From a virus (lineage: Duplodnaviria > Heunggongvirae > Uroviricota > Caudoviricetes), in the IMG/VR virus record IMGVR_UViG_2534681834_000006: 64,000 bases of DNA. One strand, 5' to 3'. Position numbers and translations under genes: made by a program. Below the pieces are notes generated by a model. The model saw nothing but the letters and a program-made list of their open reading frames with translations, ran no database searches and was not told the DNA's origin. Numbering within the stretch: position 1 is the stretch's first letter; each line of letters begins with the position of its first letter. Of this stretch, positions 13,165 through 18,636 are shown piece by piece.

Positions 13165-13193
13165 TTGACCTTTTAATCGTTCAGGCTTATAGT
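13165..13193 (+). promoter_or_regulatory. sigma70-type promoter for the c4-icd-ant transcript
   Basis: TTGACC - 17 nt - TATAGT. Confidence 0.5.
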
Positions 13194-13299
13194 TTCGCCG
13201 TCGTAGCAAATTCTGCGACCGGGTTTAGCAGCCTGAATACTTACGCGGACAACCGCAGATTTCCGATATTGCGGTATTTTTGTGTCCGTAAACCACGTT

Positions 13300-13400
13300 A
13301 CGCCCGAATTATGGTGGGGCGTGATGGGGAGGCTTCGGCCTGCTGGTTTCGTAAGTGCCAGTCTGCTAACCCCGTCACGTCCTGCCACCTGTTTAGCAGC
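13300..13400 (+). ncRNA. candidate c4-like antisense immunity RNA (approximate bounds)
   Basis: Position between promoter and icd; gtttagcag elements at 13223 and 13391 with a near-complementary ctgctaac at 13365; placement from P1 immI knowledge. Confidence 0.25.
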
Positions 13401-16589: not shown

Positions 16590-16835
16590 ATGCAATCTGA
16601 TTTTTTACAGTTAGCGATCGCTTTTGCAGGATATGTTTGTATTGGCTTCTGTGTATACATGATCAGCCGAAAAATGCTTGTCGATATCGACCGCAAAGAA
16701 CAAGCAGAGGAGATCTTAGTATGGATTTTCTTTGGCGCGGTCTGGCCATTAGGGATCATGTTTGCTGCAACATTTCTTCTGATGTGGATATTCACCCTTC
16801 CAGGTGATTTCTATAGAAAAAAAGCCAGACATTGA
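16590..16835 (+). CDS. small two-helix membrane protein
   Basis: ATG at 16590 after gaggtcggag RBS; hydrophobic stretches IAFAGYVCIGFCVYMI and ILVWIFFGAVWPLGIMFAATFLLMWIF. Confidence 0.4.
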   Translation: MQSDFLQLAIAFAGYVCIGFCVYMISRKMLVDIDRKEQAEEILVWIFFGAVWPLGIMFAATFLLMWIFTLPGDFYRKKARH

Positions 16836-17016
16836 TACAATCGTTGCGGGTGCTTGAGGCTATCTGCTTCAGGCATTACCCGAAAAGCAGATAGAAGAAA
16901 GCCCCAGATAACATTACGCGTCCTGCAAGACGCTTAACATTAATCTGAGGCCATATCTATGCTTAGCATACGTAGATTAGCCTCTTACCGACCAAAAGGT
17001 CAAGGAGAAGCAGGCT

Positions 17017-17172
17017 ATGAAGCAGCATAAAGCGATATTAATCGCTCTGATCGTCATCTGTTTAACCGTCATTGTGACGGCACTGGTAACGAGGAAAGAC
17101 CTCTGCGAGGTACGAATCCGAACCGGCCAGACGGAGGTCACTGTCTTCACAGCCTACGAATCTGAAAGGTAA
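17017..17172 (+). CDS. hok: Hok/Gef-family type I toxin
   Basis: 51 aa MKQHKAILIALIVICLTVIVTALVTRKDLCEVRIRTGQTEVTVFTAYESER after aaggagaag RBS; absent from the ORF track (below its length cut-off). Confidence 0.75.
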   Translation: MKQHKAILIALIVICLTVIVTALVTRKDLCEVRIRTGQTEVTVFTAYESER

Positions 17173-17194
17173 GAGACCTGGCGGGGAGAGATCC

Positions 17195-18532
17195 CATAAG
17201 CGCTAACTTAAGGGTTGTGGTATTACGCCTGATATGATTTAACGTGCCGATGAATTACTCTCACGATAACTGGTCAGCAATTCTGGCCCATATTGGTAAG
17301 CCCGAAGAACTGGATACTTCGGCACGTAATGCCGGGGCTCTAACCCGCCGCCGCGAAATTCGTGATGCTGCAACTCTGCTACGTCTGGGGCTGGCTTACG
17401 GCCCCGGGGGGATGTCATTACGTGAAGTCACTGCATGGGCTCAGCTCCATGACGTTGCAACATTATCTGACGTGGCTCTCCTGAAGCGGCTGCGGAATGC
17501 CGCCGACTGGTTTGGCATACTTGCCGCACAAACACTTGCTGTACGCGCCGCAGTTACGGGTTGTACAAGCGGAAAGAGATTGCGTCTTGTCGATGGAACA
17601 GCAATCAGTGCGCCCGGGGGCGGCAGCGCTGAATGGCGACTACATATGGGATATGATCCTCATACCTGTCAGTTCACTGATTTTGAGCTAACCGACAGCA
17701 GAGACGCTGAACGGCTGGACCGATTTGCGCAAACGGCAGACGAGATACGCATTGCTGACCGGGGATTCGGTTCGCGTCCCGAATGTATCCGCTCACTTGC
17801 TTTTGGAGAAGCTGATTATATCGTCCGGGTTCACTGGCGAGGATTGCGCTGGTTAACTGCAGAAGGAATGCGCTTTGACATGATGGGTTTTCTGCGCGGG
17901 CTGGATTGCGGTAAGAACGGTGAAACCACTGTAATGATAGGCAATTCAGGTAATAAAAAAGCCGGAGCTCCCTTTCCGGCACGTCTCATTGCCGTATCAC
18001 TTCCTCCCGAAAAAGCATTAATCAGTAAAACCCGACTGCTCAGCGAGAATCGTCGAAAAGGACGAGTAGTTCAGGCGGAAACGCTGGAAGCAGCGGGCCA
18101 TGTGCTATTGCTAACATCATTACCGGAAGATGAATATTCAGCAGAGCAAGTGGCTGATTGTTACCGTCTGCGATGGCAAATTGAACTGGCTTTTAAGCGG
18201 CTCAAAAGTTTGCTGCACCTGGATGCTTTGCGTGCAAAGGAACCTGAACTCGCGAAAGCGTGGATATTTGCTAATCTACTCGCCGCATTTTTAATTGACG
18301 ACATAATCCAGCCATCGCTGGATTTCCCCCCAGAAGTGCCGGATCCGAAAAGAAGAACTAACTCGTTGTGGAGAATAACAAAAATGGTCATCTGGAGCTT
18401 ACAGGTGGCCATTCGTGGGACAGTATCCCTGACAGCCTACAAAACGCAATTGAAGAACGCGAGGCATCGTCTTAACGAGGCACCGAGGCGTCGCATTCTT
18501 CAGATGGTTCAACCCTTAAGTTAGCGCTTATG
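17195..18532 (+). mobile_element. IS186 (IS4 family), complete copy with target-site duplication
   Basis: Terminal inverted repeats cataagcgctaacttaagggttg / caacccttaagttagcgcttatg; flanking direct repeat ggagagatcc; target GGGG-N6-CCCC. Confidence 0.85.
17250..18524 (+). CDS. insL: IS186 transposase
   Basis: MNYSHDNWSAILAHIGKPEELDTSARNAG... matches IS186 InsL as I recall it; alternative GTG at 17244. Confidence 0.85.
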   Translation: MNYSHDNWSAILAHIGKPEELDTSARNAGALTRRREIRDAATLLRLGLAYGPGGMSLREVTAWAQLHDVATLSDVALLKRLRNAADWFGILAAQTLAVRAAVTGCTSGKRLRLVDGTAISAPGGGSAEWRLHMGYDPHTCQFTDFELTDSRDAERLDRFAQTADEIRIADRGFGSRPECIRSLAFGEADYIVRVHWRGLRWLTAEGMRFDMMGFLRGLDCGKNGETTVMIGNSGNKKAGAPFPARLIAVSLPPEKALISKTRLLSENRRKGRVVQAETLEAAGHVLLLTSLPEDEYSAEQVADCYRLRWQIELAFKRLKSLLHLDALRAKEPELAKAWIFANLLAAFLIDDIIQPSLDFPPEVPDPKRRTNSLWRITKMVIWSLQVAIRGTVSLTAYKTQLKNARHRLNEAPRRRILQMVQPLS

Positions 18533-18636
18533 GGAGAGATCCCCGCCACTCTTCGTGTGTCAGGTATCCTCAATGCACCCTTTCCTCTCCAAATAAAAAA
18601 GCTCCCGAAGGAGCTTTAAAATACAAGGGATGACTC

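Follow-up and report, generated by a model that had tools for sequence, protein, structure and literature searches.

Does a hok-type toxin locus still serve as an addiction module when IS186 has inserted just behind the toxin gene, or has the insertion silenced the locus or released the toxin? We addressed this question for one locus in a viral DNA of 64,000 nt (IMG/VR record IMGVR_UViG_2534681834_000006; the whole stretch is referred to as the window). The reference type I toxin-antitoxin system is hok/sok of plasmid R1. In the uninterrupted hok mRNA, pairing of the fold-back inhibition element (fbi) with the tac element keeps the full-length transcript untranslatable and invisible to the antisense RNA Sok, and in the R1 paradigm the processed, active mRNA is the form that Sok binds fastest. 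An earlier reading, made from the letters of the window (the sequence-only reading), had placed IS186 in the expected 3' untranslated region of a hok-like gene.

A hok/mok/sok Cassette on a P1-like Phage-Plasmid

The reading frame at 17017-17172 (plus strand) encodes a peptide of 51 aa, MKQHKAILIALIVICLTVIVTALVTRKDLCEVRIRTGQTEVTVFTAYESER, with a strongly hydrophobic N-terminal stretch. The Pfam family HOK_GEF (PF01848) matched this peptide over 41 of the 42 model positions with an E-value of 1.3e-21 and a score of 76.3 bits, the cut-off being 22, and PHROG 251, 'MokW-like host killing', matched it at 3e-30. By these matches and the annotation of relatives, the product is a Hok/Gef toxin, as the sequence-only reading had held, and its toxicity is predicted. 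The strong ribosome-binding site noted in that reading was also found, as a Shine-Dalgarno sequence AAGGAG at 17002-17007, 9 nt before the ATG. The description of the gene as unannotated did not hold, since the identical gene is labelled hokD or 'Hok/Gef family protein' in public records; at 51 aa, the ORF would be missed by a listing with a 60-aa threshold. The mok frame (16959-17030, plus strand) is out of frame with hok in this locus and comprises 23 codons, ended by TAA at 17028-17030, as compared with 68 codons in relatives that carry CAA (Q4) at hok codon 4. A single T makes both the mok stop and the hok codon 4 CAT (His), and this allele was present in only two PLSDB records.

The leader of the hok mRNA was matched over its full length (1-157) by Rfam RF01794 at 114.9 bits, where the gathering score is 59. 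The Rfam matches to CRISPR-DR46, ceN48 and sbrA in the region were all under the gathering score and were dropped. The RF01794 match starts at the tac element (16848-16859, plus strand; GGGUGCUUGAGG), which forms the 5' end of the mRNA. It is followed by the first stem of the leader, a hairpin at 16860-16894 (CTATCTGCTT...AAGCAGATAG), which is paired both in the RF01794 consensus structure and in the minimum free energy (MFE) structure of the IS-less mRNA (nt 13-47). The suggestion that this hairpin takes part in the regulatory fold is thus borne out by its place within the RF01794 leader, with coordinates shifted by 1 nt from the 16861-16895 first given. A putative hok promoter, being a consensus match only, lies at 16814-16841, 7 nt ahead of the point at which the Rfam leader begins. 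It consists of a -35 TAGAAA (16814-16819) inside the 3' end of the upstream 81-aa ORF and an extended -10 TGaTACAAT ending at 16841, and it scored 9 of 12 matches in the consensus scan, with TG before the -10.

A Sok-like antisense gene was located on the minus strand at 16891-17003 by local alignment to K-12 sokC as annotated, in the stretch where the sequence-only reading had proposed looking for an antisense promoter. Its predicted promoter comprises a -35 TTGACC (17003-16998) and a -10 TAATCT (16979-16974); the -10 is weak, and the consensus promoter scan missed this promoter. The RNA would run from ~16967 to ~16891, with ends inferred from homology, and is predicted to fold at -36.4 kcal/mol with a long terminator-like hairpin and a U-rich tail at its end. 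The putative antisense Sok gene spans the mok start codon and hence overlaps the translation start of mok.

An 81-aa hydrophobic protein is encoded just upstream (16590-16835, plus strand). Two hydrophobic stretches, at about residues 4-27 and 41-74, agree with its earlier description as a two-helix membrane protein. No Pfam family matched this ORF, and PHROG 3772, to which it belongs at 3e-54, has no assigned function. Since similarity to other hok loci begins at 16836, we regard it as a neighbor outside the cassette and rejected it as a part of the toxin system. The hok cassette itself lies between a repL-like gene and tail-tube/baseplate genes. The P1 backbone near the locus includes ant/kilA (Pfam ANT and KilA-N), the repL-like gene, a tail-tube PHROG, a C4 antisense RNA and tRNAs, and the region matches P1-like plasmids and phages at 99-100%. 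Judged from these genes and matches, the replicon is a P1-like phage-plasmid (Punavirus/IncY).

IS186 Splits the Hairpin behind the hok Stop Codon

IS186, a member of the IS4 family, occupies 17195-18532 (plus strand; 1338 bp) and starts 22 bp past the hok stop codon (17170-17172), exactly as the sequence-only reading had placed it. Its terminal inverted repeats (17195-17217 and 18510-18532) are perfect over 23 of 23 bp, with two matches in the window against an expectation of 0.00, and both copies of the 10-bp target duplication, GGAGAGATCC, are present at 17185-17194 and 18533-18542. The transposase ORF (17250-18524, plus strand) runs in the same direction as hok and carries a DDE_Tnp_1 domain (E-value 2.4e-26). 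The element equals K-12 IS186A except for one missing C (a C6 run in place of C7, near position 18330), which extends the transposase ORF from 370 to 424 aa.

The insertion point can be given to the nucleotide. IS186 cuts a GC-rich hairpin between GGCGGGGAGAGATCC (17180-17194, which includes the left copy of the duplication) and CCGCC, the right arm, which follows the right copy (18533-18547 together). When the hairpin is restored from 17180-17194 and 18543-18547, it reads GGCGGGGA-GAGA-UCCCCGCC. IS186 is known to target GGGG(N6/N7)CCCC and to insert in either orientation (PMC5009759). The restored target, GGGGAGAGATCCCC, is a perfect GGGG(N6)CCCC, and it is the sole GGGG(N6/7)CCCC site in the restored, IS-less window. 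Uninterrupted relatives read ...GGCGGGGAGAGATCCC(C/T)GCCACTCTTCGTGTGTCAGGTATCCTCAATGCACCC..., straight through the hairpin and fbi. In the hok mRNA, the insertion falls in the 3' untranslated region.

Predicted Pairing of tac and fbi with and without IS186

Beyond IS186, at 18568-18580 (plus strand), we found the fbi element, CCTCAATGCACCC, which is complementary to tac. From characterized hok/sok loci, the 3' end of the mRNA had been expected to fold back on its 5' end, and the comparison with uninterrupted homologues showed that they carry such a complementary element downstream of the hairpin. In the window, with IS186 in between, fbi stands 1.4 kb away from the stop codon of hok and 1.7 kb away from tac. 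The duplex of tac with the real downstream 80 nt had an energy of -20.6 kcal/mol, as compared with -10.2 ± 2.2 kcal/mol for random 80-nt stretches; only 1 of 500 random stretches from the window was as stable. A further hairpin at 18598-18617, AAAGCTCC-TTCG-GGAGCTTT, serves the minus-strand tail-tube gene as a strong terminator and likely marks the 3' end of the uninterrupted hok mRNA.

Folding of the transcript with and without the IS, which the sequence-only reading had suggested as a check, gave different partners for tac. In the IS-less reconstruction, nt 1-12 paired with CCUCAAUGCACCC both in the MFE structure and in the pair probabilities, which were 0.9-1.0 (~1.0 for tac-fbi pairing). 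In predicted folds of transcripts ending at 17194-17800, tac paired locally with nt 20-34 (16867-16881) or nt 52-58 (16899-16905). For a 1773-nt read-through transcript, tac-fbi pairing was still predicted, with P ~1.0. End-pairing of tac and fbi within one mRNA of ~400 nt is not found in the actual sequence; as the two elements are parted by IS186, the locus is an interrupted member of the hok/sok group.

Probable Consequences of the Insertion for Post-Segregational Killing

We consider it probable from this analysis that splitting of the hok/mok/sok cassette by IS186 has abolished post-segregational killing, with the toxin ORF left intact and repressed by Sok. IS186 has transposed into the GC-rich hairpin just past the hok stop codon, splitting the hairpin and putting 1338 bp between the toxin ORF and fbi. 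By the R1 paradigm and the literature on K-12 gef, transcripts ending within IS186 would be without fbi, and tac would pair with local partners instead. Such transcripts would be bound at once by abundant Sok RNA and then degraded, and no stable reservoir of inert hok mRNA would accumulate. The lack of this reservoir would mean the loss of post-segregational killing.

The picture would be different if transcription ran through the element. No strong intrinsic terminator was found by a scan of the plus strand inside IS186, and the transposase is co-oriented with hok, so that read-through to the old 3' end is possible. The terminal repeats of the IS could then pair with each other, tac and fbi would meet as in the read-through fold described above, and the long mRNA would be inert; the locus would still be an addiction module and, as a by-product, the hok promoter would drive the transposase. 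However, K-12 gef mRNA has been reported to end within its (oppositely oriented) IS186 (PMC3562002), and hokE, whose IS186 has the same orientation as in the window, is counted among the inactivated K-12 loci (PMC2654758). Furthermore, IS186 breaks up the 3' hairpin itself, transcription would reach fbi ~1.3 kb later than normal, leaving the 5' end time for local structures and Sok capture, and ribosomes on the 424-codon ORF would upset the long-range fold. On balance, we judge continued function as an addiction module to be improbable.

It is somewhat less improbable, though still unlikely, that the cassette of the window would be silent irrespective of the IS, because the TAA at 17028-17030 ends mok and removes the translation that hok needs. 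Translation of hok in R1 reportedly depends on mok, and the frame here is short and its allele rare, as noted above. However, only 9-11 nt separate the hok AUG from this stop, a distance at which ribosomes that terminate could re-initiate and so preserve the coupling, and the nucleotide responsible also gives His4, as in the functional-type HokC. The shortened mok also speaks against the opposite outcome, in which fbi-less hok mRNA would be constitutively translatable and Hok would cause a fitness cost, persistence or effects resembling abortive infection. The predicted fbi-less folds with local tac pairing do resemble the processed, active mRNA of R1, but it is this active form that Sok binds fastest, and here both the sok gene and the target of Sok are undamaged. 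The insertion also occurs in no fewer than 219 public plasmids, where it seems to be stable. We judge such deregulation very unlikely. Least credible of all is that the orientation, or even the presence, of IS186 in the window is an assembly artefact. NZ_CP122822.1 has the same flanks with an identical IS inverted, and the C6/C7 difference is one of homopolymer length, a typical long-read error; however, both junctions are present with a clean 10-bp duplication, and the same orientation occurs in 32 PLSDB records, two IMG/VR contigs and K-12 hokE. We therefore retain the loss of post-segregational killing through IS186 as the preferred explanation.

Occupancy of the Target Site and Hairpin Alleles in PLSDB

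The insertion at this site has recurred. Among plasmid hok loci in PLSDB, 219 were occupied by IS186 (counted by right junctions) and 217 were empty, i.e., about half were occupied, these being raw counts that include shared ancestry. The orientation of IS186 was as in the window at 32 loci and opposite at 161; the two IMG/VR contigs share the orientation of the window, and both orientations were found on both hok codon-4 alleles. Occupancy differed markedly with the hairpin allele. The intact GGGG(N6)CCCC allele was occupied at no fewer than 199 loci and empty at 41, as compared with none occupied of the 85 loci carrying a single C-to-T change (CCCT or CCTC) in an otherwise exact 46-nt context. 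Each C-to-T change keeps the RNA hairpin through a G.U pair and breaks the IS186 target.

These data raise the possibility, which we put forward tentatively and with more doubt than confidence, that the hairpin behind the hok stop codon is a built-in landing pad for IS186 and that variation there records a tug-of-war. On one reading, the wobble alleles may have been selected, or may merely survive, because they shield a working addiction module from IS186 while leaving the RNA structure unharmed. Conversely, insertion of IS186 may be read as a recurrent, possibly favored way for hosts or phage-plasmids to disarm hok. More speculatively, there are hints that IS186 can flip or re-insert at the site, from a near-identical plasmid, NZ_CP122822.1, whose flanks differ by 1 mismatch in 3.7 kb and whose IS186, identical over its 1338 bp, is inverted. 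The C6 run had been considered as a rare marker of such a flip in situ, with the window and NZ_CP122822.1 sharing one copy, and this idea was weakened; the exact 424-aa transposase product occurs in 270 index blocks spread over many E. coli chromosomes, and the C6 form is a common allele or else a homopolymer miscall that recurs.

As about half of the hok copies on P1-like plasmids in PLSDB are occupied, finding hok on such plasmids is not evidence of a working addiction system. The locus should be annotated as an interrupted hok/mok/sok, with fbi (18568-18580) assigned to hok across IS186. It is neither a new toxin nor a new regulatory arrangement: K-12 hokC and hokE are earlier instances of a hok split by IS186, and public plasmids carry such loci very often, so that the event is real but ordinary. 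The window adds an example from a plasmid and phage to the K-12 picture of hok loci that are repeatedly disabled by IS186 at one nucleotide position. The conserved RNA hairpin of hok happens to be the preferred DNA target of the IS186 transposase. Escape from an insertion sequence by target mutation was raised in general terms by Lee et al. 2016 (PMC5009759), and the pattern of alleles against occupancy offers a small, testable case.

Comparison with Known hok Loci

The closest chromosomal counterparts are K-12 hokC (gef)/sokC with IS186A and hokE/sokE with IS186B, in which the IS interrupts the post-stop hairpin, GCGGGGAG(T/A)(G/A)ATCCC, at the homologous nucleotide, before the last C. As at the window locus, these insertions are flanked by 10-bp duplications, GGAGTGATCC and GGAGTAATCC, respectively. 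The window locus, which lies on a P1-like phage-plasmid, is ~90% identical to hokC in nucleotide sequence. The 12 nt of tac are the same in the window and hokC, and differ at several positions in hokE. An fbi homologue, CTTCAACGCACCC, lies beyond IS186A in the same place as in the window, as compared with only a weaker complementary stretch beyond IS186B. The IS is oriented as in the window in hokE and oppositely in hokC, and mokC is in frame with hokC, unlike the 23-codon mok of the window. The tac duplex energies of hokC and hokE, -16.6 and -14.5 kcal/mol, are consistent with pairing, and one tac-fbi pair, U-A in the window and C-G in hokE, appears compensatory as read from the sequences. 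When the mRNAs of K-12 hokC and hokE were reconstructed and folded, tac-fbi pairing was not the MFE solution and local alternatives won; these folds were dropped as independent support, and the fold evidence therefore hinges on the structure prediction.

Published work on gef/sof attributes to the downstream IS186 a presumed disruption of fbi and of mRNA processing, with gef still transcribed and under the control of the antisense RNA (PMC3562002). Two papers describe insertion sequences as having inactivated hok loci of K-12 (PMC2654758 and PMC7232551, both citing Pedersen and Gerdes 1999). Our literature search found no paper that names IS186, hokC and hokE together.

Among plasmids, pSvP1 (NZ_MN510446), a P1-like IncY plasmid, is identical to the window over the 895 bp upstream of the IS (100%), the mok-stop allele included, and its IS186 shares both insertion site and duplication with that of the window. 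Its element has the opposite orientation and a C7 run, in contrast to C6 in the window. The paper on pSvP1 gives '10-bp direct repeats, GGATCTCTCC' and describes the IS and an 'antibacterial toxin' ORF without linking the insertion to the regulation of hok mRNA (Venturini et al. 2019, PMC6906374).

The window cassette (~16836/16845-17194) shows 87-92% nucleotide identity to hokW/mokW/sokW of the Stx phage 933W and to hok loci of lambdoid prophages, Rac among them. This similarity starts exactly at the cassette boundary, and the replicon context differs. Most of the lambdoid copies are uninterrupted, and at least one (L024) has IS186 at the same hairpin. The hok/sok locus of R1 (parB) shares the architecture of the window locus, i.e., a Hok/Gef toxin, an overlapping mok, Sok over the mok start, tac and fbi, and a GC-rich post-stop hairpin. 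R1 hok is uninterrupted, with proven post-segregational killing, whereas the window locus, known from its sequence, has fbi displaced by 1338 bp and a shortened mok.

Organization of the hok Locus

The 51-codon ORF at 17017-17172 matched the Hok/Gef family (PF01848, E 1.3e-21) and is preceded, 9 nt upstream, by the Shine-Dalgarno sequence AAGGAG, in agreement with the sequence-only reading that had proposed a hok-like toxin here. The gene had also been described as unannotated; the identical gene is, however, named hokD or "Hok/Gef family protein" in public records, and that label probably reflects merely an ORF length threshold. A promoter scan identified a promoter-like site (TAGAAA, 16 nt, TGaTACAAT) ending at 16841. 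The hok leader (16848-17022) matched Rfam RF01794 over its full length (114.9 bits; gathering score, 59), which places the 5' end of the mRNA at GGGUGCUUGAGG (16848-16859). This is tac, the 5' element of hok mRNA, and it is the same in the window and in K-12 hokC. The upstream hairpin suspected of belonging to the regulatory fold proved to be the first stem of this leader, although it lies at 16860-16894, one base off the position originally assigned. On the minus strand, where a sok-like antisense promoter had been anticipated near the toxin start, the promoter-like boxes TTGACC (17003-16998) and TAATCT (16979-16974) precede a Sok-like stretch (~16967 to ~16891) homologous to the annotated K-12 sokC. 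This stretch ends in a long hairpin followed by a U-rich tail and spans the mok start codon (16959), an arrangement shared with the R1 paradigm.

The mok frame, which overlaps hok, ends after 23 codons at a TAA (17028-17030) that follows the hok AUG by only a few codons. An A-to-T change at 17028 turns hok codon 4 into CAT (Gln4His; HokC likewise has His) and simultaneously creates the TAA in the mok frame; in relatives with CAA, mok has 68 codons. The truncated mok may change the coupling required for hok translation. We found the mok-stop T allele in only two PLSDB records (pSvP1_F and NZ_CP122822.1), both with IS186 in the hairpin described below.

IS186 Insertion, Site Occupancy and Hairpin Alleles

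IS186 (1338 bp, 17195-18532), whose 23-bp terminal repeats are perfect and which encodes a DDE transposase, starts exactly 22 bp past the hok stop codon and is bordered on each side by a 10-bp direct repeat, GGAGAGATCC (17185-17194 and 18533-18542), as first read. Uninterrupted relatives carry the sequence TAAGAGACCTGGCGGGGAGAGATCCC(C/T)GCCACTCTTCGTGTGTCAGGTATCCTCAATGCACCC, indicating that IS186 lies inside a post-stop hairpin, GGCGGGGA-GAGA-UCCCCGCC. Once restored, the site reads GGGGAGAGATCCCC, a perfect match to the published IS186 target GGGG(N6/N7)CCCC and the sole such target in the 62.7-kb restored window. The flanks of this target are palindromic, and both orientations are used (PMC5009759). 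The C run of IS186 (18318-18340) is C6 in the window versus C7 in K-12 IS186A and four plasmid copies, so that different residues take the place of the final 9 of the 370-aa transposase and the ORF (17250-18524) runs on to 424 aa. Exactly this longer product is listed in 270 index blocks, in many E. coli chromosomes, so C6 is either an allele in wide circulation or a homopolymer miscall that recurs.

Among PLSDB records, the left junction was found in the window's orientation in 32 (plus 2 hokC-like records with 91% identity) and in the opposite orientation in 161, the right junction in either orientation in 219, and the empty site in 217; about half of the plasmid hok loci are occupied by IS186. 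Each codon-4 allele is found with IS186 in either orientation (T/forward, the window and L016; T/reverse, L002 and L021; A/forward, L018 and L013; A/reverse, L017 and L020), which points to several independent events or to recombination. In L021, a pig ETEC plasmid (NZ_CP122822.1, 64917-69967), the flanks show 1 mismatch in 3.7 kb, the rare mok-stop allele is shared, and the 1338-bp IS186 is base-for-base the same as that of the window, though it points the other way. The element may have flipped between its 23-bp terminal repeats, or been excised and then re-inserted at this hot spot; a wrongly oriented assembly would also account for the difference.

In empty-site relatives (L001, 3384-3404, and L005-L015), the 3' arm of the hairpin is often CCCT or CCTC instead of CCCC. 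Typing of empty PLSDB sites by three exact 41-mers assigned the 3' arm CCCC to 41 records, CCCT to 15 and CCTC to 70, that is, 85 records with CCCT or CCTC versus 41 with CCCC. At occupied right junctions, 199 of the 219 were exact for CCCC, and none of the 219 was exact for CCCT or CCTC; the mismatch in the one variant junction inspected lay outside these positions. In a small IMG/VR sample, all 10 of 10 empty sites carried CCCT or CCTC. Both variants retain the RNA stem via a G.U pair, but interrupt the run of four Cs in the target GGGG(N6)CCCC at the DNA level. This pattern, an association in counts uncorrected for shared ancestry, fits the target-site escape envisaged in PMC5009759.

Replicon and Neighborhood

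By sequence, the window is assigned to a P1-like phage-plasmid. Rfam matches to P1 immunity-region RNAs (the antisense RNA C4 with its targets a1/b1) and to three tRNA genes of phage type elsewhere in the window (13187-13392, 35043-35193 and 37402-37474) confirmed this backbone, and the 895 bp immediately before the IS were 99-100% identical to hundreds of E. coli/Salmonella P1-like plasmids and to P1-type phages. Upstream of hok lie ant and kilA-type antirepressor genes (Pfam ANT, KilA-N) and a repL-like gene; downstream lies a minus-strand tail-tube gene (PHROG 1120). The 81-aa protein encoded at 16590-16835 has two hydrophobic stretches, belongs to PHROG 3772 of unknown function, and had no match in Pfam. 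P1-like plasmids retain its ORF, placed after the repL-like gene and before hok, and the putative hok promoter -35 falls in its 3' end. Since similarity to 933W hokW/mokW/sokW, Rac and other lambdoid-phage hok loci begins only at 16836, right after its stop codon, this ORF is a neighbor of the cassette.

In two IS186-occupied relatives (NZ_CP029493.1, 1-621; NZ_CP080123.1, 764-1461), other elements, an IS3-family element and IS1B, replace or adjoin the stretch with repL and the 81-aa ORF that precedes hok, suggesting that this neighborhood is a general site of IS-mediated rearrangement.

Predicted Effect on tac-fbi Pairing

In the hok/sok system of R1, pairing of tac with the 3' fold-back inhibition element (fbi) holds the full-length mRNA inert. 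Slow 3' trimming strips fbi, and the RNA that refolds can be translated and is also what Sok preferentially targets. A stable pool of the inert mRNA is required for killing once the plasmid is lost. A 3' element complementary to the 5' end, as expected by the sequence-only reading, is present beyond the IS: fbi, CCTCAATGCACCC (18568-18580), complements tac with one bulged base, and intact relatives run straight through. Paired with the actual 80 nt downstream, tac formed a duplex of -20.6 kcal/mol, as compared with -10.2 +/- 2.2 kcal/mol for random 80-nt stretches of the window, 1 of 500 of which was as stable. We folded transcripts that all start at 16848. When the IS was removed (16848-17194 joined to 18543-18620), tac (nt 1-12) paired with fbi in the MFE structure and with P 0.9-1.0; in transcripts ending in the IS (17194 to 17800), tac paired locally, with nt 20-34 or nt 52-58. 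These predictions indicate that the end-pairing of the hok family is present and that its halves are parted by IS186.

Transcripts ending in the IS, with fbi displaced, would adopt an active-like fold from the outset. Sok would clear them for as long as the plasmid stays in the cell, so that no reservoir builds up; the addiction function would disappear, with the toxin ORF intact and still repressed. Alternatively, some hok/sok function may persist through transcription across IS186: the transposase is co-directional with hok, no strong plus-strand terminator was found in a scan of IS186, and in the predicted fold of the full 1773-nt read-through RNA tac still pairs with fbi (P about 1.0). The proposed loss of addiction agrees with the description of the K-12 loci, in which the IS186 that follows gef is believed to disturb fbi and processing, and gef is still transcribed under antisense RNA regulation despite IS186 (PMC3562002).

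Comparison with Known hok/IS186 Loci

E. coli K-12 carries two examples of this insertion. One, hokC (gef)/IS186A, reads GGCGGGGAGTGATCC-IS-GGAGTGATCCCCGCC, with the fbi homologue CTTCAACGCACCC past the IS and the IS in the orientation opposite to the window's; hokE/IS186B reads GCGGGGAGTAATCC-IS-GGAGTAATCCCCGC, oriented as in the window. Other IS186 copies, found via the transposase sequence, likewise adjoin hok paralogues. A lambdoid-prophage hok (L024, 4306-4461) and hokC beside dnaJ (L029) show a clean 10-bp duplication and GGGG(N6)CCCC at the junction; for a cysH-side hok beside IS186 (L032, 4305-4457), neither target duplication nor motif could be reconstructed. The sister P1-like IncY plasmid pSvP1 (NZ_MN510446) has the identical locus with IS186 reversed; its paper gives the 10-bp repeat GGATCTCTCC and makes no connection to hok regulation (PMC6906374).

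Taken together, the finding is real and the reasoning that led to it sound, and its parts are an annotated gene family and a well-characterized insertion sequence. A mildly new angle arises only at the population level, from a hot spot about 50% occupied and wobble alleles at empty sites. The locus itself is one more instance of an arrangement known from E. coli K-12 and on record for the sister plasmid.
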